The notes beneath the pieces are model-generated. The model did no database searches. It worked only from the letters and a program-made list of their open reading frames with translations, and had not been told where the DNA came from. Shown here piece by piece: positions 5,365-59,681 of a DNA stretch of 62,171 nt; the first letter of the stretch is position 1, and each line of letters begins with the position of its first letter. The position numbers were made by a program, and so were the translations under genes. This DNA comes from Bacteroidota bacterium (GTDB lineage: Bacteria > Bacteroidota > Bacteroidia > Bacteroidales > JAUZOH01). The stretch covers positions 1 to 62,171 of the forward strand of contig JAUZOH010000001.1 in NCBI GenBank assembly GCA_030706565.1, in the 5' to 3' direction.

Positions 5365-5375
5365 GTCTTCCTGTC

Positions 5376-5978
5376 TTAATTGAACATCTTGTATGCCCGG
5401 GTCGATTCTCTTTCTTCATTGGTTGTCTTGGCTTCAAAATACTGGATCTTCATGACCGTTTGCTGGAAAGATAAGCGTTTGTCCATGTCTTTCAGTTCCC
5501 TTATGCGGTCTGCATCGCCCATGCTGAATTTCCCCGGAGTAAGTATATCCTTTACGGTTGAGATTATTCCTTCTGCACCCTGAACCACGATCAATAACTG
5601 GTCGTTTAGCCTTTTTAATTCTTCAGGGCTTAAGCTCTTTAGTTTTTGTGCTTTTACACTGATTTCATATTGCTCTTTTATTAAATCAACCTGGCGTTGG
5701 TAAACCTTTTTGGTCCAAATTGCAGTTTCCAGGCTGGCATTGATCGTTTTTAATAATTTTTCAGCTTTTTGCAAATACGTTATTGTGGTGGTCAGGGAGG
5801 TTACCATGGAACTTGTATTGGCGACTGTCTGTCCTTCCATGATCGTAGTTTTCACCAGCTGGGCATTATTCACCGGGTCATATACCACCGAGGCCCCTGC
5901 TTGTGGCAAAGCAGTTCTGCCGTTTGTGAGGAACAGGATGATGGATAAAAGCATCATTTTAATGGCTTTCATGTTCAA
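5376..5978 (-). CDS. TraI-like secreted conjugation protein
   Basis: 200 aa with a signal peptide and coiled-coil-like content. It overlaps the traG 3' end and occupies the position of traI in CTnDOT-type operons. Confidence 0.45.
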   Translation of the reverse strand: MNMKAIKMMLLSIILFLTNGRTALPQAGASVVYDPVNNAQLVKTTIMEGQTVANTSSMVTSLTTTITYLQKAEKLLKTINASLETAIWTKKVYQRQVDLIKEQYEISVKAQKLKSLSPEELKRLNDQLLIVVQGAEGIISTVKDILTPGKFSMGDADRIRELKDMDKRLSFQQTVMKIQYFEAKTTNEERESTRAYKMFN

Positions 5979-8352
5979 TCATTTTTTTAATTGATGATTC
6001 AAAATTTCCTGTTTTTTGATATTCTTCAAACAGGGGTTTCTTTTGGTCTTTATCGCTGACATAAGCCCAATACACTTCACGGGGTACTTCAAGGCGGTAA
6101 CAGTTCATCTTTTTCCCCAACTTGATGGCAAACTCCGTGTAGGGCGGTTTCCCCTTCTGGTTGGAACGTAAGGAAAGCAACTGCGATACATCGTGATCCG
6201 ACAATTTCAGGCGGTGTTTTAAACTCTCCAATCCTTTGTCTTGTTCAAAAATAAAGAAGGTATGGGTATTGTTTAGGATGGCTTTTCCTATGGTGTCGTC
6301 CGGAATATTGTCTATCGTTTGAAGTATTAGGCCCATCCCGCCTTCATATTTTCTCACGGTCTGGGCTATATAGTCCATTGCCGTGATCATGCTCTGGTAC
6401 TTTAACAGCTTTGCCGCTTCTTCATATACCAGTACTTTTTTGTTTTCACTGTTTTTCCAGATTTTGTTATCAATGGTATCCCTGATCATCAGGAACATGA
6501 TCGGTAAGATGGTGGGATTGTTCAAGGCTTCGGACAATTCATAAAAGACAATGCCTTTTTCTCCCCCTCGGTCAAAAAGGCCGCTGTCGGCATAGAGGAA
6601 ATCATATATCCCGGTCACATACTCATTGCATACATGCAAAAACTCATCCCTGTTGAAAAATTCAGGATTGATTTCCAAACGGTCCAATATCCTTTCCTCT
6701 TTTTTAACATAGTTGTAAAAGGAAGGAAAAGAATATCTTTCCTGGCAGTTCAGGTAATAATCCGAAATGATTGAATTCATGGATACCCTGACGGTATCCT
6801 CCGGTTTTTTTTCTTTGAGCCAATGAATGAAGACAAAATCTGAGAGGGTCTCTATTTTGGCAGCGGTCAGCCCTTCCTTTGAGGAAAGTAAAAAGGGGTT
6901 GATCCCAAAGGGCTCACCTTCCTTATACCGGATATATTGAACCTTGTCCTTGTACAGGGTCGCGATACCTTCATTGGAGTCTCCGATATCACAGAGGATC
7001 AACGAATAATTTTGTTCTATGTAGGTCCGGTACATGTGGGTTGTAAAAAAGGATTTTCCCCCTCCTGTCTCTGCGATCACGGCAAAGTTCCTGGCAAGGA
7101 TCTGCTTGGTTGCATAAGGTTTCTCCCACAAGTCTTTCAGGATGGGGGTATTGTTTACCCGGTCATTTAACAGAATCCCCTTTTCATCATGTTCATAATT
7201 CCCCACCAGCTGTGTAAAGACCAAGGCCTGGTTGATGTCTGTCATATACGTTTCTCCCTTGGGCATAAATGAGGCATTGCCGGGGATGGAGCTTAAAAAA
7301 TAGTGGGCATGGTCTATATAGATGGGCGAATAAGGGATCAGGTCCAGTTCGGAAAAGGCAGTGGTGATCTCTTTTTCTATCTTGTTCAGGCCTTCTGTTG
7401 TGTTTGCAAAGGTAAACACGTTGTAATGTGCCCTGCAGAGCCTTATATTTTCATTTTCGGCCATTTCTTCGAGGTAGCCGTCTATCGTTTTAAAATTGTG
7501 CTCGTTTTCCTTGGAAAATTTTGAAAAGGTCCGAAATTCCTGGTCTGTCTTTTCTATTTCGATTTTAAGCCTATGGTGGTCCTCTTTAAAGATGAACTGG
7601 TTAATTACATGGTTGCACTTTAGTTCCAGCCCCAGGGAGTGCGTAAAGGCCTTATAATAGATATACCGGTCTGTGGATATCTTGCCGTCCTTTTTGCAGC
7701 TGTATATTTTCTCAGGCAAATTGTCCTGGTTACAGATCGCGTAACAGTTATAGTAATTACTGCCTATTTTGAAGGGTTCGAAGTTGATATCTGTCAGTTT
7801 GCCGGGCTGATACCCGACCAAAAAATTAAAAATAATATCCTTGATCGTGTATTCATCCAAGGGGCTCACCTTAAATTGCCTGGAGGTGTTTAAGGTGGCT
7901 ATTGCTTTGTCTACTTCCTTTTGAAAACTAATGATCTTTTCAAGATCTTCCCGGATAATCCGGTTTTTATTACTAAAAACACTTAAGGAGAAATTCTTTT
8001 GGAGGCTTTCCAGTCCCGGCAAAATCACATACATGAAGCAAGTATGCTCCAGGTATTTTTTCCCTTCATAATATTCCTGGGTGGCTTTCTGCAGAAATGT
8101 GAAACCCGGCAGGGATGCCTTCTCTATTGTTTTTTCAAGATATACATTTTGAATATGGATGATGGTGTTTGAGGGCAAAGTCTTAATAAACCTGTACAGT
8201 TCCGTCTGCATCATTTCGTAATCATTTTCAGACGGGCTGTATATCTCAGGCAGTTGCATACTGAAATACAGGACGATATCCCCATTGCGGTTCAATACAC
8301 AATTGCCATCTATTTTATAGATGTTGTACAAGTCTTTAATATCAATAATCAT
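5959..8352 (-). CDS. traG: TraG-family conjugation ATPase (VirB4-like)
   Basis: 797 aa with Walker A AETGGGKSFF and a Walker B-like KKVLVYEEAAKL. Size and position match the Bacteroidetes TraG ATPase. Confidence 0.85.
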   Translation of the reverse strand: MIIDIKDLYNIYKIDGNCVLNRNGDIVLYFSMQLPEIYSPSENDYEMMQTELYRFIKTLPSNTIIHIQNVYLEKTIEKASLPGFTFLQKATQEYYEGKKYLEHTCFMYVILPGLESLQKNFSLSVFSNKNRIIREDLEKIISFQKEVDKAIATLNTSRQFKVSPLDEYTIKDIIFNFLVGYQPGKLTDINFEPFKIGSNYYNCYAICNQDNLPEKIYSCKKDGKISTDRYIYYKAFTHSLGLELKCNHVINQFIFKEDHHRLKIEIEKTDQEFRTFSKFSKENEHNFKTIDGYLEEMAENENIRLCRAHYNVFTFANTTEGLNKIEKEITTAFSELDLIPYSPIYIDHAHYFLSSIPGNASFMPKGETYMTDINQALVFTQLVGNYEHDEKGILLNDRVNNTPILKDLWEKPYATKQILARNFAVIAETGGGKSFFTTHMYRTYIEQNYSLILCDIGDSNEGIATLYKDKVQYIRYKEGEPFGINPFLLSSKEGLTAAKIETLSDFVFIHWLKEKKPEDTVRVSMNSIISDYYLNCQERYSFPSFYNYVKKEERILDRLEINPEFFNRDEFLHVCNEYVTGIYDFLYADSGLFDRGGEKGIVFYELSEALNNPTILPIMFLMIRDTIDNKIWKNSENKKVLVYEEAAKLLKYQSMITAMDYIAQTVRKYEGGMGLILQTIDNIPDDTIGKAILNNTHTFFIFEQDKGLESLKHRLKLSDHDVSQLLSLRSNQKGKPPYTEFAIKLGKKMNCYRLEVPREVYWAYVSDKDQKKPLFEEYQKTGNFESSIKKMIEHESH

Positions 8353-8630
8353 CGAAACGGCTTAAAAGAATTTATTTTTATTGAGACCTTATCACCATAA
8401 AATTTTTTGCTGAAGGCATTCATCTTTTTCTCTGTTACCTGTGATAACACGATATAGGAAAACAGGTCAAGGATAGTGATCAGGATGACCTTGGTCAGCG
8501 AAATCCCTGAGAATAATGAAAAGGCAGAGAAGAAAAGTATGGCGAAAAAGATTATAAAATTTACCACCGGCAAATTGTAAACCAGGGGTTTTCTTTCTAT
8601 AGCCCTTCTGGTTTTATATTCTTTTATCAT
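8349..8630 (-). CDS. TraF-like small membrane protein
   Basis: 93 aa with two TM helices, overlapping traG by 4 nt. Confidence 0.5.
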   Translation of the reverse strand: MIKEYKTRRAIERKPLVYNLPVVNFIIFFAILFFSAFSLFSGISLTKVILITILDLFSYIVLSQVTEKKMNAFSKKFYGDKVSIKINSFKPFR

Positions 8631-8923
8631 TATACAATAAGTGCCTTAACCGCTTCGGCAATACCCAATACAAAGGCCGGGTAAACAGCCATTTTCACGC
8701 AGGAGAAAAATGCTTCTTTGGCATATTCACCCCCTTTAATAAAATCAGAATATTTTAAGATGCCGGTTACCACAAATACGACGAAAACCAGGGCGATCAA
8801 TGCCGGCCGTATGTACTGTGTATACATGCTGTTTAGGGTGGTTTCGAACGAACCCGCTGCAAATGCCATTGCGGTGGCATAAGCCATCATCAGGACCAAT
8901 GATAAAAGTTTTTTCTTGTTCAT
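8630..8923 (-). CDS. TraE-like small membrane protein (pilin-like)
   Basis: 97 aa with a signal/TM segment plus two further hydrophobic helices. It directly abuts the TraF-like gene. Confidence 0.5.
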   Translation of the reverse strand: MNKKKLLSLVLMMAYATAMAFAAGSFETTLNSMYTQYIRPALIALVFVVFVVTGILKYSDFIKGGEYAKEAFFSCVKMAVYPAFVLGIAEAVKALIV

Positions 8924-8970
8924 GGAGGTAATATTTAATTGGTTAAGGAATTGCTGCTCACTAAAGTCAA

Positions 8971-9192
8971 TTATCTATTATCCGGGTCTTGCAGAGCATT
9001 ATAAAATTCTGCAATCCTGTACATTTCTCTAATTGTGAAAGTTTGTGATTTTAATTTTCGGTCTAATGTGGCCTTTGAAAGCCTGATATGTTCATACAAG
9101 GCTTTCTTTTGCATGCCGTAAGCTTCGATAATCCAGGGTATTTTCTTTTGAAGTTCTTCAAAGTCCGATATTATCTTGGTTTCTAATATCAT
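8971..9192 (-). CDS. Small hypothetical protein at the head of the tra operon (possible HTH)
   Basis: 73-aa ORF co-oriented with tra. The segment KKALYEHIRLSKATLDRKLK looks HTH-like. Confidence 0.35.
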   Translation of the reverse strand: MILETKIISDFEELQKKIPWIIEAYGMQKKALYEHIRLSKATLDRKLKSQTFTIREMYRIAEFYNALQDPDNR

Positions 9193-9724
9193 TGAAGGAT
9201 TTTTTTTGAATTTTGACCTCTTATATATAAATATACAAAAGTTTCATAAAAACACCATAAAAGATAGATATTTAATACCTTAAAAATATATTTAACCCTT
9301 GACTCTTATTGAGAGAAGGCTAAGCAAAATCCAAGGGATTGGGAGGATCATAAAAAAACATTTTTTATGAATGTACTTTAAAATAGGTGATTATTAAATT
9401 CTACTTATCCTGTGAATTAAGGGTTAAAAATTAGCAACTATTTTACCCTAAATGTTTTTTTCTTATTCCTTTTTATTCTCCACGTATTGCCTGAGGATAT
9501 TCAATAAAATCCAATGATTTTACTATTAGGTGCGAATGCCTTTTCCAATAATCAAATTGCAGTATGTGTGATTTTTTGCCTATTCCTGGATGTATCAGGT
9601 TTTCTTTTTTACTTCGATTTTAAACGGAAGCAGTTTCCAGTCTCAGAAATTTCTGGATATTTTGCTAAAAAATGCAGAGAACAACCCTTTAATCAATCAT
9701 TTGTCTGAAAACACAGTTGACTTG

Positions 9725-9793
9725 CGGCCAGGTTTAATATTTAAAAAAATTACTTTGTTTGAATAAAAAAATCTACCTTTAAGTCTGAGAATA
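9725..9793. repeat. Promoter-like ~70-nt direct repeat, copy 1
   Basis: cggccaggtttaatatttaaaaaaattactttgtttgaataaaaaaatctacctttaagtctgagaata recurs at 19312-19382. Confidence 0.75.
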
Positions 9794-10008
9794 ATCTTAA
9801 AAAGATTTATTCTGATGCAATAAAACAAATGAAAGCAGTCAAAAATAAGATAAATCAATTTACTACAAAATGTTAACGCCTATAGATAAGGCCGATATAA
9901 CAGCAATTATGCAGTTACAGAGATGTTACCAGCAAGTGTAAAGACACGCTGCTACCAATTTTGATAAATTATAAACTAAATATGACTAAATAATCTAACA
10001 GAAATCCC

Positions 10009-10923
10009 ATGAAAATTAATTATGACATAAAAGCATGGAAAGGGAAACAGCCGGTAAAAGTATTGGAAGATAAACTTGATGATTATAAAAAAGAAGTATT
10101 AACTAATTTGAATTTAATCCAATATGAAAATGTGTTTGACTATGATTACACCGAAATATCAATTCAAACAGGTCCTTTTGCTGGAATTGATAAAAGAATA
10201 AAAATAGAAGAATCATTTCAATCATTTATTTGGATTTGGTCTTATTGCCTAATGACATTATATGATGAAGGTGTTGCAAAACCAAGATTGAAGATTACAA
10301 ACTCTAAATCAAAGATTAAACAAGCTTTTGATTTATTAGATTATGGATATACATTACTTGACAATTTCCAGAATTGGGATTTAAAGCTTCCAAACCCTCA
10401 AGAATATGATATATCTGATTCTTATTATATAGAAAAGGCAAATGGCGTTTACATTTTCGCCATGAATGAATTATATCTGCATGAAATTGGACATATCCAT
10501 AATGGAGATATTGATAAACTTATAAATCATAATACTGGTAGGTATATTATAGATTTAGCTGAAAGGAAATCTTTTGAATATAATGCAGACAAATTTGCTT
10601 TTGAAAAGTTAGTAATTGGTATAAAAAATCCAATTTATAACAAAACAATTGAGTTTGGAATAATCTCTGGCTTCTCAGCTCTCATTATGATTCAAACTAC
10701 ATTGAAAGACTATTCAGGTATGTATCCAGATGCAGATGAAAGATACAAAATAGCGATAGAATCTCTGAATATTCATGAAGAAGATAATCTATGGGGAATT
10801 GCTTGTTTGGCATGGAAACTATGGAGTAATAAAAATTCAAGAGATTTAGATTGGGCAGTAGAATACGACACCTACAAAGAATTATTTCAAGCAACAATTG
10901 TAAAAGTAAACGATTTTAAGTAA
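10009..10923 (+). CDS. ImmA/IrrE-like (M78-type) HExxH metallopeptidase-like protein
   Basis: 304 aa with LHEIGHIHNGD followed ~25 aa later by ERKSFEYNADKFAFEKL (HExxH ... E..A..FA pattern). No HTH or signal peptide is present. Confidence 0.55.
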   Translation: MKINYDIKAWKGKQPVKVLEDKLDDYKKEVLTNLNLIQYENVFDYDYTEISIQTGPFAGIDKRIKIEESFQSFIWIWSYCLMTLYDEGVAKPRLKITNSKSKIKQAFDLLDYGYTLLDNFQNWDLKLPNPQEYDISDSYYIEKANGVYIFAMNELYLHEIGHIHNGDIDKLINHNTGRYIIDLAERKSFEYNADKFAFEKLVIGIKNPIYNKTIEFGIISGFSALIMIQTTLKDYSGMYPDADERYKIAIESLNIHEEDNLWGIACLAWKLWSNKNSRDLDWAVEYDTYKELFQATIVKVNDFK

Positions 10924-10943
10924 AATAAAATAACACCAGCTGG

Positions 10944-11073
10944 TAACACGCGGTCATAAAACATTGGGGTTTAAGTGGTATGCCAAGCTCATCCCTCGCT
11001 GGCAAGGTTCTTATCGGTTGATAGATTCGCAGCTCCGAATTCCCCAACGTTTCATACCACCAACCGTTGTGTG
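10944..11073. repeat. 130-nt imperfect inverted repeat / structured spacer
   Basis: The arms are TAACACGCGGTCATAAAACATTGGGG and CCCCAACGTTTCATACCACCAACCGTTGTGTG. GC content is visibly higher than in the flanks. Confidence 0.6.
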
Positions 11074-11094
11074 TAATGCAAAAAAAGACAGTAC

Positions 11095-13860
11095 ATGAAA
11101 TTTAAAACCCAACATTTAAGAAATATTATAGATGCTAACAATGATAATCGATTAGCAATTTTTATTGGAGCTGGAGTTTCAAAAAATTCTGAAACGAAAG
11201 GACTAAAACTACCAACATGGCAAGATTTAATTGATGATTTGAAGAAGGATTTAGAATTAACTAGTGAGACTGACTTTTTAAAAATAGCACAACTTTATTA
11301 TCTTGAATTTAAAGAGTATTCATATCTTAAAAAACTAAAAAAATATTTCCCTGATAGCATAAGACCTTCTTCAATACACAAACAAATATTTGATTTAAAT
11401 CCTCAAGTAATTATTACAACAAATTGGGATACAATTCTTGAGAAAACAATAGAAGAAAATGCATATATCTATGATGTAATTCGTTGTGATGAAGATTTAG
11501 TTAAATCCACTATTCAAAAGAAAGTGATTAAAATGCATGGGGATTTTAAAAATCACAATATAGTTTTCAAAGAAGATGATTACTTGAATTATCAATATAA
11601 TTTTCCATTAATCGAAAATTACGTAAAAAGCATTTTGTCTACTCATACGGTACTTTTTCTTGGTTATTCATATAATGATATTGATTTCAAACAAATAATG
11701 AAGTGGTTGCAAAATTATTCAAAAGTACAACCGCCTAGATATCTAACTGTCTTTTATGAAAATTCAACCCAAAATAAGTATTTAGAAAATCATGGAATAA
11801 CCACATTTGTGCTTGATGAACCCAATGGTTCAATGAATCTTCAAAGCGACTATACTGAGAATACAAAGTATTTCTTAGACTTGATAAAAAATGATGAAAG
11901 AATAAACTTCTTAAAAACAGAGAATGACATTATCAATTTTGTTTTCAATAAATTAAAGGTGCTTTCTGAACTAAATGGTATTTTAATTGAACAAATACAA
12001 ACCTCATTGACTAATTGTGGTTTTCTGTATGATGATAGCAATAAAACAATATTGGAATTCCGAGATAAAATACTCACATATGACTTAAATAAAGAAAAGA
12101 GAAATATTTATAAGGAATTTGTAAAAATACTAAATAAGCAAAACGATAAAGAATTATCAAACAAGACTCTGTATAGTATTTTTGAAATTTTAAGTAAAGC
12201 TAATATTCAAGGAATTGTTATCACCGAAGACGACTTATCAACAAGGCAAAAGAAATATATAGTTCTTGATGACTATTTAACAAATAAAGAATTTAATCTT
12301 GAATCAAAGTATCTTGATTTCAATTTTTTAATTGAGGACAAATCAACAAATGATATTTATGAATTGCTTCAAAAATCATTCATTTTATATCAGCTTGAAG
12401 ATTATGAAAAAGCTTATGAGATTGTTGAAAAAACAATAATACAGTGTTTAAAACAGAAAAATTACACTGTTTTATTTATTTCAATGTTTAATAAAAATGT
12501 TCTTCTCTGGAATTTGAAATATGGCTTTTTCCAAAATAGAAAAGCATATGAAAACATTGAAGAATATAACTTAGAAGAAAAGTTTAATCAGCTTCCAAAA
12601 GACTTACAAAAAGCTCTTAAGCCAATTTATAACTTTTTAAACTCTTGTTATTTGTACAAATTTGCGTACAGAATATCAGAAGAATTAAATAAAAAAGAGG
12701 AATCTAAAAAAACTATCAAATCTGGCGGTTTTGTTTTAAACTCTAATATTACTGAATCTTCTTCAAAACATAAAAATCTAATTTTATTTGTACTTCGTAA
12801 TGGAATAATTTTAGAAGGAAGAAGCGAATTTCAAAGTATCAATAAATATTTTCTGAAAATTTCTATTATAAGACAGGTTCAAAATAAAGCGACTACATTT
12901 AATGAAATAGAGTTTTTTTCAGCGATAAAATATTTGTCAAATAAAGAATTAAAGCATCTACTATCTGATTTTTTCAAGTATGATTCTGAACAAAAGGGAA
13001 AATTTGAAATTTCAGAAGAAAATAAAGATTGGTTAATTAATAGGGTATTAATAAATCTTATAAATAGATATATAAATTCCGATAATGCGTTTAACACATT
13101 TGAAAAATACTTAGAGAATACAATCTTCTTACTTTCATTAACAAAACTATCAGATGATGAAATTTCAAAAATTTTAGAAAGCTTTAATATCATTATCGAT
13201 AAAGCTAAAAATACAATTGGAATTTACGAATCAATAAATCTTTTCTTGGAAAACCAATATAATCTTCATAGTACATCCATTAATGAGAGTTCATTACTTA
13301 ATTTGATAAAATCCATAATTAATAAATTTGTAAGCAAGCAATATAATGGATATGATTTTCATGCTATTACACGCAATGAAATTTCGAATTTATATGGTTA
13401 TGCAAGAGAACAAAAAGCAATTTTTAAAGAAAAAGCATTGATTAATAAATTAATTGATGCATCAAAAGAACTACCAATAGAAGAACAATTAAATATTTCA
13501 GAATCTCTTCTTCTTAGTATTTATGATATTTCTACTGATGAAATTAAGACAAAAATTAAAGAATATATTTTGAGCATAAAATCAAGTGAAACAAAAGAAA
13601 AACATGATTATTTAATATTTGAGCTCATCTTAATTATTCGTGATTTTAAAAATTTAGAAACATCTTTAATCAAAGAGCTTGAAGAATATTTTGAACCATA
13701 TAAAGACTCAAAGTCATTTTCTTCAATTTGGTATTCAATAGATGGTCAAATAGATTATTTAATAAAAGAAAAGCAACTAACTCAGCTCAAAGAAGTTTCT
13801 TCAACGATAAAAACGTTAATAGAAAACTTTAAGAAAAGTGAAAGATTTTCAATATTTTAA
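11095..13860 (+). CDS. SIR2-domain protein with a long helical C-terminal region (defence-associated sirtuin-like)
   Basis: 921 aa. The N-terminus carries RLAIFIGAGVSKNS, IITTNWDTILE and VIKMHGDF (SIR2_2-type motifs). About 700 aa of K/E/L/N-rich sequence follow without a P-loop. Confidence 0.75.
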   Translation: MKFKTQHLRNIIDANNDNRLAIFIGAGVSKNSETKGLKLPTWQDLIDDLKKDLELTSETDFLKIAQLYYLEFKEYSYLKKLKKYFPDSIRPSSIHKQIFDLNPQVIITTNWDTILEKTIEENAYIYDVIRCDEDLVKSTIQKKVIKMHGDFKNHNIVFKEDDYLNYQYNFPLIENYVKSILSTHTVLFLGYSYNDIDFKQIMKWLQNYSKVQPPRYLTVFYENSTQNKYLENHGITTFVLDEPNGSMNLQSDYTENTKYFLDLIKNDERINFLKTENDIINFVFNKLKVLSELNGILIEQIQTSLTNCGFLYDDSNKTILEFRDKILTYDLNKEKRNIYKEFVKILNKQNDKELSNKTLYSIFEILSKANIQGIVITEDDLSTRQKKYIVLDDYLTNKEFNLESKYLDFNFLIEDKSTNDIYELLQKSFILYQLEDYEKAYEIVEKTIIQCLKQKNYTVLFISMFNKNVLLWNLKYGFFQNRKAYENIEEYNLEEKFNQLPKDLQKALKPIYNFLNSCYLYKFAYRISEELNKKEESKKTIKSGGFVLNSNITESSSKHKNLILFVLRNGIILEGRSEFQSINKYFLKISIIRQVQNKATTFNEIEFFSAIKYLSNKELKHLLSDFFKYDSEQKGKFEISEENKDWLINRVLINLINRYINSDNAFNTFEKYLENTIFLLSLTKLSDDEISKILESFNIIIDKAKNTIGIYESINLFLENQYNLHSTSINESSLLNLIKSIINKFVSKQYNGYDFHAITRNEISNLYGYAREQKAIFKEKALINKLIDASKELPIEEQLNISESLLLSIYDISTDEIKTKIKEYILSIKSSETKEKHDYLIFELILIIRDFKNLETSLIKELEEYFEPYKDSKSFSSIWYSIDGQIDYLIKEKQLTQLKEVSSTIKTLIENFKKSERFSIF

Positions 13861-13882
13861 TGTGAAAGAAAGCACTACACAC

Positions 13883-13933
13883 AATAAATAGGACTCTGAG
13901 CGGTCTGCAAGACCCAGCGATGAGTCTGTGTTG
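13883..13933. repeat. Cassette-end hairpin repeat, copy A
   Basis: aataaataGGACTCTGAGCGGTCTGCAAGACCCAGCGATGAGTCTgtgttg lies 22 nt after the SIR2 stop codon and is identical to copy B. Confidence 0.8.
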
Positions 13934-14157
13934 GACTACAAACGCCGGGCGATGGGCTATGTACTTAATGAGGTTTTTTGATATTTTTTAAAGGCAGGCT
14001 AATTAACCGTTCTTTGAAGTTTTGTAAATTTTGCAGGGTTCGGAACTATCTGCAATCTGCAAAAATAGAATTATAAAAAAACAATGTTTTTCTTTGCTTT
14101 TTCTTCGCTATAAGACATAGCTTTCCCAGTTATGCCGTCAGCGTAAAAAAAGAGTTA

Positions 14158-14379
14158 TTAATTAAGAATGTTGCAACACTTATTCAGGAAATAATCATCC
14201 GGAGATCGTATCCGGGGAAGTTCCCTTACGATAACCATTCGTCCTGTTTTGCATGCCGGGCAAAGGCAGGGATTTATGCCGGTCAGCCGTTCAAATCGTT
14301 GCAGGCCGGTTTCATTTGTCTTTTCCTTTTGCATTATTATGGTCTCGATGCCTAGTTTGTCTTCAGGAACAAACTGCAA
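14158..14379 (-). pseudogene. C-terminal remnant of an IS91-like (Y2/zinc-finger) transposase
   Basis: The 73-aa ORF ends ...RFERLTGINPCLCPACKTGRMVIVRELPRIRSP. This resembles the C-terminal CxxC tail of IS91-family transposases as I recall them. No upstream coding sequence is present. Confidence 0.35.
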
Positions 14380-14702
14380 GTTAAGGTTTCATTTTGAACT
14401 ATGGTTGTAAATGCCATTTTATAAACAACTTTTTCAAAATCAGGAACAAGCACGATGGCCTATTCAACAATTGTTAAACCCGATATTTTTCTCTTAATCA
14501 AATTTTTTTTGAATTAATCTTTGGAGTATAAATAGAATCGGGTACTTTAAAATAGCTATCCGCACAGGCGGATTTAGTTCAACAATGCGTGGTTTACGTT
14601 AATTTGAAGCGACAGTGGAAAAAACGGATGATACCCACCCAGTGAAAACGGCCATACCCGTTCACTTTTTTGCATAATCAGTCAAGGCGCTGTAAAAATA
14701 GA

Positions 14703-15422
14703 TTATTTTTTTCTCAAAGTATCTCCTAAAAGATCAAAACGTAGAGCCGTATGTACAATTCTGTCTAGAATGGCATCAGCCGCAGTCGTATTTTTCTTCA
14801 TTACGTCATACCAATCAGCAACAGGAAGCTGACTGATTATAACAGTTGACTTTCTTGAATGCCTGTCCTCAATGATTTCCATGAAGTCCAGCAGTTGCTG
14901 TCCGTCCAGAACTTTCATACCAAAGTCATCCAGTATAAGCAGGTCGGTCTGTGCCATCCTGTCAAAGAACTTTGGCAAGGAGGACTCTATGCGTGCCATG
15001 GAGATGTGTTCAAAAAGTTTTTGCATGTTGAAGTACGCGACCTTGTAACCGGAAAGACAAGCCTGATACCCCAATGCTGTACCGAGCCAGCTCTTTCCAG
15101 TGCCCGAAGCTCCTGTGATAGTTACGGGCACGCCTTTTCTTATGTACTCACAGGTGGCCAGCCTCATGATCCTGTCCCTTTCCACACCTCGTGCAGCATC
15201 CATGGACAAATCTTCAATGCACACCTGATAGCGGAAGCGGGCGTCCTTGATAAGCCGGGCATTGCGGTTCTCCTTTCTCTGGTCCTGCTCCGACTGCAAT
15301 AGCAGCTGCAGGCCGTCACTGAAGGACATGGAGTCTACCTTTCTTGTTTCCTGTAACGAGAGCCAGCATTGTGCCATTCCCGGCATCCTGAGACTCTTCA
15401 GTTCATTTGCGATTTCATTCAT
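14703..15422 (-). CDS. istB: IS21 helper ATPase IstB
   Basis: 239 aa with Walker A GASGTGKSW and Walker B LLILDDFG, immediately downstream of istA. Confidence 0.9.
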   Translation of the reverse strand: MNEIANELKSLRMPGMAQCWLSLQETRKVDSMSFSDGLQLLLQSEQDQRKENRNARLIKDARFRYQVCIEDLSMDAARGVERDRIMRLATCEYIRKGVPVTITGASGTGKSWLGTALGYQACLSGYKVAYFNMQKLFEHISMARIESSLPKFFDRMAQTDLLILDDFGMKVLDGQQLLDFMEIIEDRHSRKSTVIISQLPVADWYDVMKKNTTAADAILDRIVHTALRFDLLGDTLRKK

Positions 15423-15451
15423 AACACTTTAATTTTTAAAAATTATACATA

Positions 15452-17029
15452 TTACTTGAATTGTTCTTTTCCTCTGATGTTGGCATGGTCGGGATGGGCA
15501 GGGATGCAGTCGATGGATTCTGTCTCATTGACTTCCTCCACCCCCTTGCATTTGCTTTTTACTAGTTGCAGGACGAAGGGATATCGATACTTCTGATATA
15601 TCAGGGCTGTCTCGCACGCCTTCCTGAACAGGTTTGGATCGGTCGTTCTCTGCAGGTGCAGCAGACCCTCACAGCTTCTGTAGAAGGTCTCAGGAGGCAC
15701 GGTTGCCGTCGCAAACATATATTCGATGACCTGGCCAAGCTCGTCCATCGCTTTCTTGCCACGTGTGACATAATACTCCGGAGACCGGTCACGGTAAGCC
15801 AGCGAGTTGGACGCGAGGTGTTCACGTACCAGCGTATAATGTCCGGCGGAGTAATCTCGTTGATGCGTTGCCACACATTCCCCCTGGCAATACACCTTTA
15901 CAAGTGTCCGGGTATAAATGACCTTGACTTTTTGTCCGATGAAGGAGTGCGGCACGGAGTAGTAGTGCTTGTCTCTTCCCAGATAGATGCACCCGTTGAC
16001 GCCCACCTTCAGCTGGGTATAGGAGCGTATCTCGAAGTCGGCGGATGGAAGCGGACGGAGCTCGGGCTTCTCAATGGCCAGGAACTGTTCCTCACGGGTA
16101 TATGGATGCTGCTGCATGCGTTTCTGATTGTGGACCTTCATTTTCTCCGCTACGGCTCTGTTCAATTCCTCCAGCGAATAGAAACGTTCGTTGCGCAAAG
16201 GGGCATAGACCCTCTGATAGACAAGCTTCACATGATCCTCGACAAGACTTTTGTCCTTTGGGTGTACCGGACGTGCCGGCAAGACAACGCAGCCATAATG
16301 GTTTGCAAGGTCCTCCATGACGCGGTTGATCTCCGGTTCATAGGGGTCGGTCTTGATGACGGCGGATTTCAGGTTGTCCGGGACAATTATTTTTGGAACG
16401 CCTCCAATGGATCTGAAACAGCTTGCAATGGCATACACCAGATCCTCGCTTCTTTGAGAGGGAACGCCCAGAGCGTAGCCATAGTCCGTTGCGGGCATAC
16501 ATGCGACAAACATCTGAACCGTAATGATCTCGCCCGTCTCCATGTCGGTGTACTCCATCGTGTCCCCGGCAAAGTCTATGAAGATCTTCTCTCCACCAAC
16601 AAAGGTGTCCTTCAAAACGGTTGAGGACCTTTCTTCTTCGGCCAACTTGTTCTGCCTGCAGTGAAAGCGGAACTGCGTAAGAGAGTATCCCTCTGGGTTC
16701 TCCGCCTTGTATTCCTCCCACAGGAGCTTGAGAGTTACATGTTTGCGAGCCTCTTCCTTTTTCAGGTAAGGGAGTTTCTCCTTAAGCTGCTCAAAACGCA
16801 TATCCGTGTAGGCCGGACTGCCGCCGGTCATGCGGTGCTCCAGCACGGGGTCGTCAAGCCTGAGAAGTCTGTTGATGTTCATACTGTCGGATTCCGCACG
16901 TTTGACGTAGCGGTTCACCGTTTCCTTGTTCATCTCCAATTGCGTGGCTATCTTACGGTTGGATACCCCATCCAGATGCAACTGGAGCACTTGTTTGATC
17001 TTGCTCATTTCTTTTGTCTTTCCTGCCAT
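15452..17029 (-). CDS. istA: IS21 transposase IstA
   Basis: The start was taken at MAGKTKEMSKIKQVLQLHLDGVSNRKIATQL (HTH). A DDE integrase core follows. The track ORF extends to 17293 across the terminal repeats. Confidence 0.9.
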   Translation of the reverse strand: MAGKTKEMSKIKQVLQLHLDGVSNRKIATQLEMNKETVNRYVKRAESDSMNINRLLRLDDPVLEHRMTGGSPAYTDMRFEQLKEKLPYLKKEEARKHVTLKLLWEEYKAENPEGYSLTQFRFHCRQNKLAEEERSSTVLKDTFVGGEKIFIDFAGDTMEYTDMETGEIITVQMFVACMPATDYGYALGVPSQRSEDLVYAIASCFRSIGGVPKIIVPDNLKSAVIKTDPYEPEINRVMEDLANHYGCVVLPARPVHPKDKSLVEDHVKLVYQRVYAPLRNERFYSLEELNRAVAEKMKVHNQKRMQQHPYTREEQFLAIEKPELRPLPSADFEIRSYTQLKVGVNGCIYLGRDKHYYSVPHSFIGQKVKVIYTRTLVKVYCQGECVATHQRDYSAGHYTLVREHLASNSLAYRDRSPEYYVTRGKKAMDELGQVIEYMFATATVPPETFYRSCEGLLHLQRTTDPNLFRKACETALIYQKYRYPFVLQLVKSKCKGVEEVNETESIDCIPAHPDHANIRGKEQFK

Positions 17030-17622
17030 GACTTTGATTATGCTTACTTGGGTACTGTTACACAGCACAAAGTAAACCGGACAAAAGTGAACGGACATGC
17101 TCCGTTTTTTAAAAAGTCTGGATAAGTGAACGGCAATGCTCCGTTTTGCTTTATCATCCAGTTCCTTACGAAGACAAATTGGGTGGCAATGCTCCGTTTT
17201 TAGGTGGATTTTTGCCTTACCAGAATTGTCTGGGTGGTAATGCTCCGTTTTTTTGTCTGTTTTTGCCTGTTCTTGCAGGAAATGAACGGACATGCTCCGT
17301 TTTTTAGGCCCTTTTTAGGACAAAAAGAAGGTTATTGAACTCCGTCTTTTTGGGTGGGTATGCTCCGATTTTTCCACGACAGAATCCGCCGGTAGGTTTG
17401 CAGCCGTTGAAACCAACATGATCACGTTTCCCGCACTGTGTCTATCCCTGACAGTTAGTGGTAATTTTGAATTTTTGGAAAAAGTAATTGAACAGAAAAG
17501 TAACTCGTGGGTTAATAATATTGGATAAATATTTAATAAATTTTAAAATCATATATTATTTCATACTTTTGTACAATAATCAAGTATGGCAATAGTTAAA
17601 AGATTAAATTAAAAGGAAGGTT

Positions 17623-17885: not shown

Positions 17886-18293
17886 ATGAATAAAGCCGCA
17901 TTTACTTTAGAAAAATATCGATTTGAGAAAGTAATGATTGATTTTTCAAAAAAATCATCAAATGATTTAGACATCGGTTTTGAACCGTCTGGAAAATTTT
18001 TCTCGTCTGACTCTAGTTATGAACTAAAATTTGTATTTATTGCTCATAACGAAAATCCGAAAAATGCATTTGTTCAAATTGAATGTATTGCTCAGTTTAA
18101 ATTTGAAGAAAACATAAAATTTGAAGAGATCCCATCCTATTTTTACAGAAATAGTATTGCCATAATCTTTCCGTATGTTAGAGCTTTTATTAGTACTGTA
18201 ACTTTACAAGCTAACATTCCACCAATTGTAATTCCAACAATGAATTTATCTTCTTTGGAGAATCCTTTAAAAGAAAATACAATACAGATTTAA
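17886..18293 (+). CDS. SecB-like chaperone
   Basis: 135 aa. ...FVQIECIAQFKFEE...YFYRNSIAIIFPYVRAFISTVTLQANIPPIVIPTMNL matches the C-terminal LFPY.R...S.....GFPP..L.P.NF signature of SecB. Confidence 0.6.
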   Translation: MNKAAFTLEKYRFEKVMIDFSKKSSNDLDIGFEPSGKFFSSDSSYELKFVFIAHNENPKNAFVQIECIAQFKFEENIKFEEIPSYFYRNSIAIIFPYVRAFISTVTLQANIPPIVIPTMNLSSLENPLKENTIQI

Positions 18294-18305
18294 CTTGACA
18301 TTACA

Positions 18306-18884
18306 TTGAAAGTAAAAACCGTATACCAAACACTTGAAGATAGAGGAAATCCAGATGAGATAGAACAAAATGCACCGTTTCCATGTCATTGGGAGAATGC
18401 TTGGCTTGGTGACGGTTACTACTTTTGGGATACCTTTATAGAAAATGCTCATTGGTGGGGAAATGTAAGATATAAAAATAACTATGTAATTTGTAGCTTC
18501 AGTTGTGACTTTGATACAGCAACCTGTTTCGATTTAGTTGGAGATACAGAACACATGTTAGACTTCTCCAATAGCATTGAATTTCTAAAACAGCAAAAAT
18601 TAATTGATGTTAATACAACTGTCCCTAGAGTCTTAGCTCTTTTGAAAAGCAAAGTCAAAGGATTTAATTATCAGGCGATAAGAGTTTATGGCATAAAATC
18701 AATTTCAGATTTTAAACAAGACTTTGAGAAATATAGACATCGATTGGTTTTTGAACTTTCAAAACCCCAATATTTAGACTATAAACCTGCAATACAAATT
18801 TGCATATTTGACAAAAAAGGAATTAACCTAAGAAATACAAAAATTGAATTTCCAGACGAATACAATTATGACTTTTTAGTTTAA
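18306..18884 (+). CDS. Hypothetical protein (candidate toxin/effector of the cassette)
   Basis: 192 aa with a TTG start. It carries AWLGDGYYFWDTFIENAHWWG, a G.G.YF-type motif reminiscent of ART-like/DUF3990-type folds (weak). Hairpin repeat copy B follows. Confidence 0.45.
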   Translation: MKVKTVYQTLEDRGNPDEIEQNAPFPCHWENAWLGDGYYFWDTFIENAHWWGNVRYKNNYVICSFSCDFDTATCFDLVGDTEHMLDFSNSIEFLKQQKLIDVNTTVPRVLALLKSKVKGFNYQAIRVYGIKSISDFKQDFEKYRHRLVFELSKPQYLDYKPAIQICIFDKKGINLRNTKIEFPDEYNYDFLV

Positions 18885-18895
18885 AAACTACCGCT

Positions 18896-18946
18896 AATAA
18901 ATAGGACTCTGAGCGGTCTGCAAGACCCAGCGATGAGTCTGTGTTG
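18896..18946. repeat. Cassette-end hairpin repeat, copy B
   Basis: Identical to copy A over ~50 nt and located 11 nt after the stop at 18884. Confidence 0.8.
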
Positions 18947-19311
18947 ATTGCCACTACAACCTGTTTCTGCCTTACCGGTTAAAATCAAATATAAATCTGG
19001 AAATAAACAGTTCCACTTCCACTATAGTCAAGCCACTTAACGATCTTTTCAAGATCAAACATTTATTAATCGCGCAGCGTAAAACAACCATTCCGTTTTG
19101 GCTGGGTTCTGTCTGAGCAAAGTCCGCCTCCTGGCGGACGGCGCGAGTTCAGCCAGCCAAGCATTTTTCTTTGGTTCCGTTTCCTTTGTTGCCACAAAAG
19201 AAATGAATGTATAATCTTTTTGTGACGACAACTAAGCGAAGCGGCCTCACTCTCCGGCATTTTAAAGAGAATAAAAAAGAATAAGGCAATTTGACCGGAT
19301 TAAAAATCTAC

Positions 19312-19382
19312 CGGCCAGGTTTAATATTTTTTTTAAAATTACTTTGTCTGTATAAAAAAATCTACCTTTAAGTATGAGAATA
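19312..19382. repeat. Promoter-like ~70-nt direct repeat, copy 2
   Basis: cggccaggtttaatattttttttaaaattactttgtctgtataaaaaaatctacctttaagtatgagaata lies ~105 nt upstream of higB. Confidence 0.75.
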
Positions 19383-19486
19383 CTTATCCGTTGTGCAAAA
19401 TTGCAAAAAAACATTCTGTGAAGAAATTACACTTTGATTATAGTTTCCTTTTGTGAAACTTTATTTGTATATTTGCAGATAAGTTT

Positions 19487-19819
19487 ATGAAAGTACATTT
19501 GATTAAAAAACAGTCTATTGAGGACTATGTCTTAAAAAATGCAAGAAGTGTTGCATCATTTGAGATTTAGTTATCAATTATTAAACGAGTTGATTGGAAT
19601 GAGCCTAAAGAGATTATCTCGACTTTTAATAGTGCAGATATTCTTGGTAAAGGTTCAGACAGAGTTGTATTTAATATTGGCGGAAACAATTACAGACTGA
19701 TTTGCAAATATAACTTTGGAAATACAAGAGTTCATCTCTTTGTAAAGTGGATTGGTACTCATGCAGAGTATACAAAACTTTGCAACGAAGGAAAACAATA
19801 CGAGATTGATGTTTATTAA
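19487..19819 (+). pseudogene. higB: HigB-family toxin gene with an in-frame amber codon
   Basis: MKVHLIKKQSIEDYVLKNARSVASFEI-TAG(19568-19570)-LSIIKRVDWNEPKEIISTFNSADILGKGSDRVVFNIGGNNYRLICKYNFGNTRVHLFVKWIGTHAEYTKL... HigB homologues have Trp at the stop position. Confidence 0.75.
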
Positions 19820-19837
19820 AGTTTTAAAAAGAAAAAT

Positions 19838-20278
19838 ATGAAAACATTAATATATACAGTAATAAAGGATATTAAGCAATACAAAAATTATTGTGACACT
19901 TTGGAGAAATTGGTTCTTCGAAATGATAAAGAAAATAATGACGAGATTGAACTGCTTACTCTATTGATTGAAAAATGGGATAATGAGCATAATACATTTA
20001 ATGATTCAGATCCAATAGTATTACTTAAATTTCTAATGGAAAATCATGATTTAAAGGCAAAAGATTTGGTAACTATTATGGATTTATCAAAAGGGACAAT
20101 CTCAAAGATTTTAAACTATCATAAAGGACTTTCAAAAGATACAATAAGGAAGCTTTCAGATTATTTTAAAGTATCTCAAGAAGCCTTTAATCGACCTTAT
20201 AAACTGATTAACGAAGTGAATAAACATTTCCGAAATGCAAGTTTAATGAATACAAGGAAAAATATGATAGAGGCATAA
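19838..20278 (+). CDS. higA: HigA-family HTH antitoxin
   Basis: 146 aa with a C-terminal HTH (LKAKDLVTIMDLSKGTISKILNYHKGLSKDTIRKLSDYF), 19 nt downstream of higB. Confidence 0.75.
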   Translation: MKTLIYTVIKDIKQYKNYCDTLEKLVLRNDKENNDEIELLTLLIEKWDNEHNTFNDSDPIVLLKFLMENHDLKAKDLVTIMDLSKGTISKILNYHKGLSKDTIRKLSDYFKVSQEAFNRPYKLINEVNKHFRNASLMNTRKNMIEA

Positions 20279-20336: not shown

Positions 20337-20879
20337 CTATTTACAGTAGTTTTGTGGCAGAAGTTCTGCCAATCTATTGGCTTTGTGCTCAGAAATACGT
20401 GAGAGAACGTCCCTGAACCAGGTAAAGGGTTCTACTTTGTTGAGTTTGCAGGATCCAATAAAGGAGTACATCATGGCCGCCCTTTGTGCGGCTTCATGTG
20501 ATCCGGCAAATAGATAATTCTTCCTTCCCAGAGCCACCGGACGTATGCTATTCTCCACAAGGTTGTTATCTATTTCATAACGGCCATCTTCCATGTAACG
20601 CAACAGCCGGGGCCATAAGGCCAGGGTATAAGATATAGCTCCCCCTATAACACTTTTGGGCAAAACCTGTTCAAGGTTTGCTTTTAGCCAGGTTTCCATT
20701 TTGGTTAGCACGGGCAATGCTTTTTCCTCCCTCAGGGATTTTCGGGCTGTTGCATCCATCCCCTGTTCTCGGGCACATCGCTCCATGGCATACAAATCCT
20801 GCATCAGCATAAGCATCTGCTTTGCCCTATCCGGATCATTATCTAAGGAATCTTCAAATTTACGCCTGGCATGCGCCAT
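20337..20879 (-). pseudogene. IS66-family transposase, C-terminal fragment only
   Basis: AHARRKFEDSL...YAMER...LENSIRPVALGRKNYLFAGSHEAAQRAAMMYSFIGSCKLNKVEPFTWFRDVL is the conserved IS66 Tnp C-terminus. The N-terminal ~300 aa are absent and the region is GC-rich. Confidence 0.85.
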
Positions 20880-21014: not shown

Positions 21015-22340
21015 CTATAGGGTTCTGTTTTTAACCCAAAACGCCCTTAAGGGATAAACAAGTTTATATATTAGACGTTGTTCTTGTGTAATAATTTCGC
21101 AGCTACCATTATATAAACTTTTCATAGAAATATCTTTACCGTATGTAGTTAATAATTTTGACGAAAAATTAACTTCAGCAAAGTAAAAGTCATTATCCGG
21201 GACAAGAGATATCTTATTGACAAAACCGCAAAGCATACCATATTCCATATATGGAAAATCATCTAATTTAATAATAACTTTCTGTCCAACCTTAACTTTG
21301 CCAGAACTTTGTATAGGTAATTGTATCTTGGCAATATAAGAAATTGAACCAGAAGGTATGATAGTAAATACGACATCCCCTTTTTTTACATTTTGGTTTT
21401 TGTTCCATATACGAGTAAAAGTCATTATGCCATCTGTTGTTGATTTTAAAATATATGTTTTTTCCCAATCAGAAATATGTGAAAGTAAAACTTCATAGCT
21501 TTCTTTAAGATTATTATGTTGTTGGGTTGTTTGTTCTAAACGTTGAGATGATAAATCGAGAATATCCTGATTTAATTTTGTAACTTGAATGTTTGCATTA
21601 ATAATTTCGGTATTTACATTTTCAAGAGTACTTTTTGACTGCAAATAGGTAGTCCGAGATTTCTCAAAATCAGCTAGCGCTATAACTTCATGTTTATATA
21701 ATAATGAATCTCGCCTGAATTGACTTCTCGCAATACTTAATTGTTCTTTTGAATAATACAATTTTTTATTTAATTTTTTGATATAGCTATTTTCTTGAGA
21801 TATCTCGAAGTTAAGGCTTGCTATTTTTTTTCGTTGGTAATTAAGAAAAACAAAATTGTTATAGTCACTTAATTGTTTTATGAAAGATGAATAATATGGC
21901 TGAATCTCGCCTAATTTAAAATAATCATATGTAATTCCTGAAAAGATAGTATCCTTAAACTGAAATATTGAGTTTAAGGAGTCTGTTAAGTTTTTAATTG
22001 CGAAAACTTCCTTATAATCGGCATTACTCTCTATAACTGCTAATATCTCATTTTCATTTACATGTTGATTGTCCCTAATAAATATTTTTTCAATCCGACC
22101 ATCTGAATGTGCTACTATAGAAGAAGGAATATTATTTGCAGTAATTTGAACTTTTCCTGAAACGATATCAGGGTATTTAAAAAACCAGCATCCTATAAGG
22201 ATTATCATTAGAAAAATAAATATTATGGTAATGCCAAATCTGACAAACCATTTAGGTACAATTCCAATAATATCATTAATCTCATTGTTCTGTAACCTAA
22301 GTTTTCCAATTTCTGTTTTTAGTGGTTTATTATTTTCCAT
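21015..22340 (-). CDS. HlyD-family secretion adaptor (bacteriocin export)
   Basis: 441 aa with an N-terminal TM helix and a long coiled-coil middle region, directly downstream of the C39-ABC transporter. Confidence 0.75.
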   Translation of the reverse strand: MENNKPLKTEIGKLRLQNNEINDIIGIVPKWFVRFGITIIFIFLMIILIGCWFFKYPDIVSGKVQITANNIPSSIVAHSDGRIEKIFIRDNQHVNENEILAVIESNADYKEVFAIKNLTDSLNSIFQFKDTIFSGITYDYFKLGEIQPYYSSFIKQLSDYNNFVFLNYQRKKIASLNFEISQENSYIKKLNKKLYYSKEQLSIARSQFRRDSLLYKHEVIALADFEKSRTTYLQSKSTLENVNTEIINANIQVTKLNQDILDLSSQRLEQTTQQHNNLKESYEVLLSHISDWEKTYILKSTTDGIMTFTRIWNKNQNVKKGDVVFTIIPSGSISYIAKIQLPIQSSGKVKVGQKVIIKLDDFPYMEYGMLCGFVNKISLVPDNDFYFAEVNFSSKLLTTYGKDISMKSLYNGSCEIITQEQRLIYKLVYPLRAFWVKNRTL

Positions 22341-22343
22341 TGT

Positions 22344-24533: not shown

Positions 24534-24538
24534 TTCTA

Positions 24539-59215: not shown

Positions 59216-59228
59216 AAAGCCTATTGCA

Positions 59229-59278
59229 AATAATAAGACTCTGAGCGGTCTGAAAGACCCTGCAATGAGTCTATATTG
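59229..59278. repeat. Cassette-end hairpin repeat, copy C (diverged)
   Basis: aaataataaGACTCTGAGCGGTCTGAAAGACCCTGCAATGAGTCTatattg. Similarity to the copy A flank continues for ~40 more nt. Confidence 0.75.
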
Positions 59279-59681
59279 AACTATAAACGCTGGGTTATGA
59301 ATCATAACTTATTGATAATAAACAAAATTATTTTGGAAAAATCAGTTATTAAAAATTTTAGTAGACACATACTGATATTGGAATTTGATTTGAAGGTATG
59401 TTAAGAATAAAGAAAAATTCTTTAGTTGAAACGAAACTACAAGTTTACAACACATTTTTCAAATCAGTCAAGATTTTTTAGCAAGGGTTGCACAACGCAT
59501 TCATTCAACCAAAAAAATTGGCAAAGTACCTAAACAAATTATTATCATACCACTATTTCAATTTACACAAATAAATAATAAATTTATTTACAGTTTTAAA
59601 AAAATATTATGTATATTTGTATGAAAAAAATTCCCTTTGCCAGAAGGGAATTTTATAAGTATTAATTTAAATTTCAAAATT

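Follow-up and report, generated by a model that had tools for sequence, protein, structure and literature searches.

Insertion sequences (ISs) of the IS91 family end at terIS in a single subterminal palindrome beside the cleavage tetranucleotide (GTTC in IS801 and IS1294), and a circle of bottom-strand single-stranded DNA (ssDNA) is their functional intermediate (PMC13181058). The tyrosine recombinases linked to some IS91 elements are reported to be the closest homologues of the integron integrase IntI, without its insertion (bioRxiv 10.1101/542381). ISWz1, an IS91-family element of Weeksellaceae, is reported to occur as multiple ‘tandem transposase’ copies in the cargo of integrative and conjugative elements (ICEs) of Flavobacteriia and Elizabethkingia (PMC11322121, PMC10973501), and in conjugative elements of Flavobacteriia ISWz1-like copies recur round tet(X) and other resistance genes. 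Here we analysed a 62,171-nt stretch of a Bacteroidota bacterium (contig JAUZOH010000001.1, assembly GCA_030706565.1; “the window”), which holds three copies (A, B and C) of a hairpin element of about 50 nt. Our reading, to which we give a probability of roughly 78%, is that this element forms the outermost cis structure on the oriIS side of an IS91-family IS, about 2.44 kb long, that inserts at attC-like cassette junctions. It would thus end a known kind of mobile element whose site specificity and end architecture were not found described, and no report of attC-directed insertion by any IS91-family member was found in the literature searched.

The 35-nt hairpin core, GACTCTGAGCGGTCTGCAAGACCCAGCGATGAGTC, lies at 13892-13926 (A) and 18905-18939 (B) without mismatch and at 59237-59271 (C) with three mismatches, and no copy is expected by chance in the window (0 of 100 shuffles). 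An earlier note on this DNA had reported three copies, and its observation was confirmed. A and B are indeed identical, over 51 nt (13883-13933 and 18896-18946, from AATAAATAGG through TGTGTTG), the likeness of A and C does run past the hairpin (85% identity across 67 nt), and the three substitutions in C all fall, as claimed, at unpaired positions (loop GCA to GAA, bulge CA to CT, internal loop GAT to AAT). Stems in copy A are GACTC/GAGTC, GC/GC and GGTCT/AGACC. The distances from upstream stop codons, given as 11-22 nt, are 22, 11 and 13 nt for A, B and C, the same-strand open reading frames (ORFs) ending at 13860, 18884 and 59215. A decayed IS follows copy A and a decayed miniature derivative follows copy C, whereas copy B is an IS end on its own:

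13883 to 13933, plus strand: copy A, a complete left (oriIS-side) end, with AATAAATAGG (13883-13892), the hairpin (13892-13926), TGT and the GTTG of a GTTGGAC box.
18896 to 18946, plus strand: copy B, a solo 51-nt left end without an IS body, AATAAATAGG plus hairpin plus TGTGTTG.
59228 to 59432, plus strand: copy C, an AT-drifted, non-autonomous derivative of ~200 nt, with the left end, the hairpin (59237-59271), ATTGAACTATAAAC and the terminus-like CTTTAGTTGAAAC (59420-59432).
58192 to 58205, plus strand: GGATTTAGTGAAAC, a degenerate motif resembling a terminus, which lies upstream of the cassette ORF of copy C (58640-59215).

The 436-nt segment 3' of copy B (18947-19382) recurs after the hairpin in another locus, L074.

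Comparison with other genomes ties the hairpin to an IS. In a blastn search against plasmids the element matched only Persicobacter sp. JZB09 (Cytophagales), in 16 places, and the sequence common to these copies begins exactly at the element and continues into a reverse-strand Y2 transposase and tyrosine recombinase. Scanning one genome per species for the hairpin core gave at least 120 loci, almost all in Bacteroidota, in which the hairpin is preceded by (C/T)AATAAATAGG and followed at a fixed +15 offset by GTTGAACTACA. The downstream consensus reads GTTGAACTACAyCC, a short variable palindrome and CTATGyACTTAnnGAnGGTTTT, and the GTTRRRY-like box seen after copy A in the earlier note (GTTGGAC, or GTTGAAC) proved to be a conserved feature. 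Such an ori sequence follows about 85-90% of the hairpins, and every ori end in the loci has the hairpin before it. About 40 loci are complete, with the reverse-strand Y2 transposase at ~+270 to +1420, the recombinase at ~+1430 to +2320 and the terminus AGCTATCCCGnnnGGGATTTAGTTC at about +2400, and there are miniature (non-autonomous) derivatives in which ori and terminus stand alone, 170-500 nt apart. The layout of the unit is (AA)TAAATAGG, hairpin, nnn, GTTGAACTACAyCC, second palindrome, CTATGyACTTA and so on to palindrome-TTA-GTTC(AA). Some 110 nt accommodate both the hairpin and the second, variable palindrome, the transposase stop codon is about 200 nt further in, and both genes are on the strand opposite to that on which the hairpin is read.

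The transposase matches the IS91-family model NF033538 at 401 bits (cut-off 125), as well as PF04986 (1.7e-52) and PF14319 (1.6e-28). For the recombinase the best matches were the XerA and ‘integron integrase’ models, both below their cut-offs (NF040815, 196 bits against 220; TIGR02249, 152 bits against 265), and since the TIGR02249 match is split into two separate stretches the protein lacks the IntI-specific segment. The terminus AGCTATCCCGnnnGGGATTTA-GTTC is kept at 66 ends; its version in the window is ATCCGCacagGCGGAT-TTA-GTTC (14558-14580), and a Clostridium relative with the same gene pair has ACCGCtgttaGCGGT-TTA-GTTC. A linked tyrosine recombinase, which the earlier note proposed to look for, does exist, represented in the window only by the decayed remnant beside copy A (14385-14492). 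The remains of this IS are as follows:

13934 to 14580, minus strand: decayed, internally deleted IS91-family body of copy A, with the ori-side repeat GACTACAAAC.., the motif CTATGTACTTAATGAGGTTTTT (13957-13978), gene remnants and the terminus.
14415 to 14200, minus strand: C-terminal remnant of the Y2 transposase (tblastn, E=1e-13).
14492 to 14385, minus strand: N-terminal remnant of the tyrosine recombinase (tblastn).
14558 to 14580: terminus of copy A, ATCCGC-acag-GCGGAT-TTA-GTTC.
14581 to 14613, plus strand: right flank of the copy A unit, AACAATGCG.., the start of cassette-junction sequence, cut by an IS21-family element.

The element shares with the IS91 family (IS91, IS801, IS1294 and the recombinase-bearing subgroup) a Y2 HUH transposase (Zn_Tnp_IS91 and Y2_Tnp), the lack of a target duplication, a terminus of palindrome plus GTTC, a palindromic oriIS end downstream of tnpA and a terIS-oriIS head-to-tail junction, here seen in metagenome assemblies; the order recombinase then transposase is that of the subgroup. 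Its closest named relative is ISWz1, set beside it by published description, and like ISWz1 it has multiple copies inside the cargo of Bacteroidota conjugative elements. It differs from the family in that no CTTG, GTTC or GTCC abuts the element (the tetranucleotide ahead of AATAAATAGG varies, as S-G/C-N-Y, and GTTG lies 48 nt inside), in that it inserts at one position of attC-like palindromes, and in that its end and terminus can fold into an attC-like site.

By sequence comparison, the hairpin is part of the IS and not of the upstream cassette. Similarity among IS bodies tracks hairpin stem type (9-mer Jaccard 0.038 vs 0.003), whereas similarity among upstream cassettes does not (0.0027 vs 0.0023). 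Among the Persicobacter copies identity starts sharply at AATAAATAGG while the cassettes differ. One contig that is 99.8% identical to window positions 5095-13988 has another derivative and other cassettes after hairpin A, so the arrays turn over quickly. One-ended (read-through) transposition of a cassette together with the hairpin was rejected because IS copies are near-identical within a genome while the neighbouring cassettes differ.

To the right of the terminus lies a semi-conserved, imperfect palindrome of ~130 nt, which starts with AAC, ends in ..CCGTTR and has nine compensatory pairs. A covariance model of this junction palindrome, built from 12 examples, finds 68 sites in 100 loci (up to five per 8-kb locus) plus one in the window (here and below, carets mark boundaries or crossover positions):

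10940 to 11073, plus strand: unoccupied attC-like palindrome of ~130 nt (..CTGGT^AAC ... CCGTTG; 42.7 bits, E=2e-7), between the Peptidase_U49 and SIR2 cassettes.

Thirty-four of the 69 sites abut an IS terminus. Another 34 are empty, with a cassette end (..Y^AAC) directly before them, and one, at a locus edge, is unclassified; all except one share the strand of the hairpin (68/69). Because the 20 nt upstream are alike in composition at occupied (..Y^AAT AAATAGG) and empty (..Y^AAC) sites, the inserted unit can be delimited as (AA)TAAATAGG-hairpin-...-TTAGTTC(AA). There is no target duplication, occupied sites reading ..RYYY^AAT...GTTC^AAC.. and empty ones ..RYYY^AAC.. with the flank not repeated. 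Judged by these alignments, the unit inserts in one orientation between the cassette’s ..RYYY and the AAC that opens the attC-like palindrome, which explains why the hairpin stands just after stop codons. In the triplet that follows Y, occupied sites have T as third base in 97% of cases and empty sites have C in 100%, which places the crossover within RYYY^A^A^. This range takes in AA^C, the position used by integron integrases.

These junctions resemble attC sites in their AAC...GTT ends, long imperfect palindrome, covariation and occurrence in arrays. The IS1111-attC group of the IS110 family targets integron attC sites. Group IIC-attC introns, described in PMC3001079, do so too. With these attC-targeting elements the IS shares orientation-specific insertion at folded cassette-boundary sites; it differs in using an HUH Y2 transposase and a tyrosine recombinase, and its target is a Bacteroidota attC-like palindrome whose identity with canonical attC is not established.

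Several further observations concern these sites. The attC-like palindromes separate single-gene cassettes in L118, L013, L071, L080 and other loci, with no canonical IntI nearby. With the IS21 element removed, the flank after copy A showed no clear attC-like palindrome fold, and the window has one significant model site. The window regions 61383-61482 and 61700-61740 hold a possible further attC-like site, AACGGCTCAAACC...ACACGTTAT, not significant by the covariance model, and near it a cassette-end-like AAAAAGCACAGCCCAT^AAT followed by non-hairpin sequence. In loci L090 (reverse complement, ~4590) and L004 (~5468) the ..CAAT^ point at which the hairpin element joins is taken by a different sequence, starting CGAG(G/T)A.., which may be a second element at the same crossover position.

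In the earlier note the hairpin was offered as a possible cassette recombination site, in which hairpin and GTTRRRY-like box would form the cassettes’ own attC-type site, at which an integron-like recombinase would excise and insert them. We regard this as improbable, although it takes up real features: most copies lie 8-24 nt past same-strand stop codons, GTTGAAC fits GTTRRRY, and the succession of box, spacer, bulged stem, spacer and box is like a short attC. Moreover, after ~10% of hairpins, copy B and that of L074 among them, comes sequence that is not IS and that diverges near GTTG, as would result from a crossover there, and arrays differ after hairpin A between the 99.8%-identical backbones. 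However, about 85-90% of copies have the IS ori at a fixed offset and not the next cassette, hairpin variants follow the IS body and not the cassette, hairpin-free junctions are common and carry the different ~130-nt palindrome, and cassette 3' ends are alike with or without the hairpin; the recombinase, too, is without the insertion specific to IntI and does not reach the integron-integrase cut-off. Nor does the integrated hairpin make a canonical attC by R''/R' pairing round it, as only about 4 bp pair. What stands of the claim is the position, which held in the scan of related Bacteroidota (90 of 126 copies after same-strand ORFs, against 8.6% of random positions), and the tie to recombination and mobility, which runs through an IS91-family element. 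That the hairpin belongs to the cassettes, as a marker of their 3' ends or as their recombination site, is contradicted by its attachment to the IS end, its co-variation with the IS and its absence from half of the junctions.

For the IS-end reading, the likeness of hairpin plus flanks to attC remains part of the picture: a RYYYAA(T/C) box, a bulged imperfect stem, a GTTRRRY box, a length of about 66 nt, a post-ORF position and, likely, action as folded single-stranded DNA. It is unlike attC in being owned by the IS and not moving with the upstream cassette, in its recombinase (no IntI-specific extra domain, 152 bits vs the TIGR02249 cut-off of 265), and in a probable crossover in the ORF-proximal box on the coding strand.

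Fold statistics, from 48 distinct related sequences with 500 shuffles as control, bear out the proposal that selection acts on the structure. Of all cells 92.6% are paired, 6 of 13 pairs show two-sided changes, and covariation scores 0.168, where shuffles give 0.072 (0/500 reach it); slid registers of the fold pair at most 47% of cells. The inner stem is nearly invariant, which is partly fixed by the use of the hairpin core as search bait; compensatory variants of it are GGCGT/ACGCC and GGTCG/CGACC, and some loci have a different outer stem. In Persicobacter sp. JZB09 the outer stem is GGAATA/TATTCC in place of GGACTC/GAGTC, a compensatory change. The hairpin is not an intrinsic (Rho-independent) terminator, in which a T-tract directly follows a G+C-rich stem, as had been argued from the window: no T-tract follows the hairpins in the window, TTTTT occurs within 15 nt of the stem in 0 of 138 related copies, and the mean T count in the 12 nt past the stem is 3.7 in the same copies. 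A variant occurs in L005 (~1280-1335) and L132 (reverse complement, ~1655-1715), where pairing of AATAAATAGG with a downstream CCTATTTATT turns the whole element into one long, near-perfect palindrome; ori sequence does not follow it.

HUH enzymes of IS200/IS605 and REP/RAYT systems read subterminal DNA hairpins. The element is like them in having a conserved imperfect hairpin near its end, presumably read as ssDNA by an HUH nuclease, and differs in its IS91-type Y2 (not Y1) transposase, with no TnpA(Y1) or RAYT gene. Unlike REP sequences its copies are tied to cassette junctions and are not dispersed intergenic repeats.

The head-to-tail junction, GATTTAGTTCAA joined to TAAATAGGA, was found in three metagenome contigs, which are assemblies and not circles in cells; in one of them, of 2256 nt, a single 2.44-kb unit is circularly permuted. 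The predicted hairpin-including junction pattern was absent from viral contigs, and a phage collection searched with the element gave no match. On the strand as written, the bottom one with respect to the transposase gene, the terminus arm GGATTTAGTTCAA is complementary to the ori arm GTTGAACTAcATCC, and in simulated junctions of two of five elements, including copy A of the window, the arms form a long stem with the hairpin as its cap. GTTGAAC is nearly invariant, and the 5' box ..YAAT of integrated copies pairs over only about 4 bp; GTTCAAT, fully complementary to GTTGAAC, arises only in the inferred junction, where the hairpin stands between GTTCAA(T) and GTTGAAC and the boxes thus run RYYYAAY...GTTRRRY.

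From the complementary arms, the capped stem and the attC-order boxes we propose a folded ssDNA site. The strand as written would move as a single-stranded circle, in which terminus arm GGATTTAGTTCAA would pair with ori arm GTTGAACTAcATCC and the hairpin would cap the stem. The junction would thereby adopt the attC layout of RYYYAA(T) box, spacer, bulged stem, spacer and GTTRRRY box, and the hairpin would belong to a site for recombination or termination, folded from single-stranded DNA, which the element’s own proteins would recognise and join to AA^C of a resident attC-like site. Whether the IS91-type element amounts to a self-mobilising integron-like cassette, with an ssDNA circle peeled off by the Y2 transposase, an attC-mimic junction that has the hairpin at its tip, and a single-strand exchange by the IntI-related recombinase at AA^C of attC-like sites in Bacteroidota arrays, is a much more speculative step, which we put forward tentatively and think rather doubtful.

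A second rival, which we also consider unlikely, takes the hairpin for a pre-existing target: the IS proper, AACTACA...GTTC, would insert 3' of a tetranucleotide as IS91 does, here GTTG, with a preference for a GTTG beside a terminus-like hairpin. IS91-family elements do target CTTG, GTTC or GTCC by oriIS, and their termini are palindrome plus GTTC (PMC13181058); GTTG^AACTACA and TTAGTTC^AAC are inverted repeats, and the Clostridium relative has GTTG^AGCC by its ori, inside a palindromic flank. Set against this, no hairpin-GTTG-AAC site without the first ~10 nt of ori was found in the loci, and empty junctions are entirely without the hairpin. The identity boundary in Persicobacter lies left of AATAAATAGG, and hairpin type co-varies with the IS body. 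Finally, the hairpin-less junction TTAGTTCAACTAMA that this rival calls for is absent from all loci and from viral contigs, whereas a hairpin-including junction exists.

A third possibility is that the hairpin acts on the mRNA of the upstream cassette, by stabilising its 3' end, marking a processing site or causing factor-dependent termination. This has the coding-strand position just past stop codons, the compensatory changes that keep the stem and the stop codons in two frames of the preceding AATAAATAG in its favour, but is the least credible of the three, given that T-tracts are lacking in all 138 copies, Rfam has no match in the window, G.U-type pairs are not in excess on the coding strand, IS insertion accounts for the hairpin’s presence while half of cassette junctions lack it, and the hairpin is conserved jointly with DNA-level IS-end motifs. 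An incidental effect of the hairpin on upstream transcripts may nevertheless occur. The Rfam scan, at gathering thresholds, gave 0 matches in the window, and Rfam itself has no attC family; no tRNA or tmRNA genes were found in the window.

Several points weigh against our reading of the hairpin as the end of an inserting IS. Around 10% of hairpins, window copy B among them, have no ori sequence after them. The loci were baited with the hairpin, which fixes the inner stem and means that the 50% site occupancy is not a population estimate. For the same cassette junction in both occupied and empty state only ambiguous pairs were found, and the insertion boundaries rest on consensus comparison and junction contigs. 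The outer boundary abuts variable RYYY, with GTTG 48 nt inside, unlike the CTTG/GTTC by oriIS, so the nick site could be internal and the hairpin formally outside the rolling-circle unit. Mismatch types across copies (G.T 17, A.C 10) are similar in number and so pick out no acting strand. The proposed mechanism, with the acting protein and strand, is inferred, and no transposition or recombination was observed.

The backbone of the window is a conjugative element or plasmid, with Tra proteins, a coupling protein, Rep_3 and ParA. Its cassette array (~9.8-20.3 kb) holds, in this order, a U49 peptidase, the empty attC-like site, SIR2, copy A with the decayed IS cut by IS21, a SecB-type module, copy B with the 436-nt segment, a HigBA-type module and an IS66 fragment. 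A second short array, at about 58.2-62 kb, includes copy C. The cassettes and the intervening IS21 element are:

10009 to 10923: U49 peptidase cassette ORF.
11095 to 13860, plus strand: SIR2-domain cassette ORF, its stop 22 nt before copy A.
14614 to 17377, minus strand: complete IS21-family element, with IstA (15452-17293), IstB (14703-15422) and a 6-bp target duplication, CGACAG.
17886 to 18884: SecB-like plus partner cassette, ending 11 nt before copy B.
19488 to 20278: HigB/helix-turn-helix (HTH) pair cassette.
58640 to 59215: cassette ORF before copy C, ending 13 nt before it.

IS21 went in close to the right-hand edge of the decayed IS91-family unit. The GC-rich block at 14.7-17.3 kb, considered at first as a group II intron, is this IS21. 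The HigB-like/HTH-antitoxin cassette (19393-20268) recurs in L090 and L014 at 83% and 77% identity with different neighbours, and its boundary immediately follows the ..CCGTTG with which an attC-like site ends. Directly after this HigBA-type cassette comes a truncated fragment of an IS66-family transposase (20337-20879, minus strand), which probably removed the cassette’s downstream junction. An AT-rich, promoter-like direct repeat of 71 nt, 89% identical between its copies at 9725-9793 and 19312-19382, stands once before the U49/SIR2 cassettes and once before the HigB/HTH pair, and is also present in L074 and L127.

In L002 (1002-2093, plus strand), L004, L122 and L022 there is a 363-aa tyrosine recombinase that scores 233 bits against the NCBIfam integron-integrase cut-off of 220. 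Three of these loci have it upstream of the cassettes and oriented like them, L022 has it on the opposite strand, and it resembles a 1,071-bp integrase reported to head the resistance region in Elizabethkingia ICEs. As an ‘array integrase’ upstream of cassettes it was set aside, being found in only four loci and not in the window.

Elsewhere in the window, all on the minus strand, are a bacteriocin-like cluster of radical-SAM, alpha-beta hydrolase, C39-peptidase ATP-binding cassette (ABC) exporter and HlyD genes (21015-26732), a 1706-aa SprB-repeat protein with a type IX secretion system (T9SS) sorting domain (29529-34649) and a 2153-aa SpvB/FG-GAP/RHS-repeat protein (38361-44822).

IS91-family elements with an added tyrosine recombinase have been catalogued, and their association with resistance genes lacks a mechanistic explanation. 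The present comparison defines an insertion site precisely, as the RYYY^AAC box of attC-like palindromes, with the hairpin as a conserved cis structure. The hairpin can serve as an annotation marker for the IS ends and for miniature derivatives, which gene callers and IS finders miss. The attC-like palindromes resemble an integron-type cassette system, which standard surveys report to be very rare in Bacteroidota, and in the window AT-rich defence genes (SIR2, U49 peptidase, SecB-type and HigBA-type toxin-antitoxin) sit in an integron-like array on a conjugative element. If the reading of the element as a self-mobilising integron-like cassette is true, it would link rolling-circle transposons to integrons both mechanistically and evolutionarily, and would point to a widespread integron-like cassette system of Bacteroidota that carries defence genes and operates without a canonical IntI.

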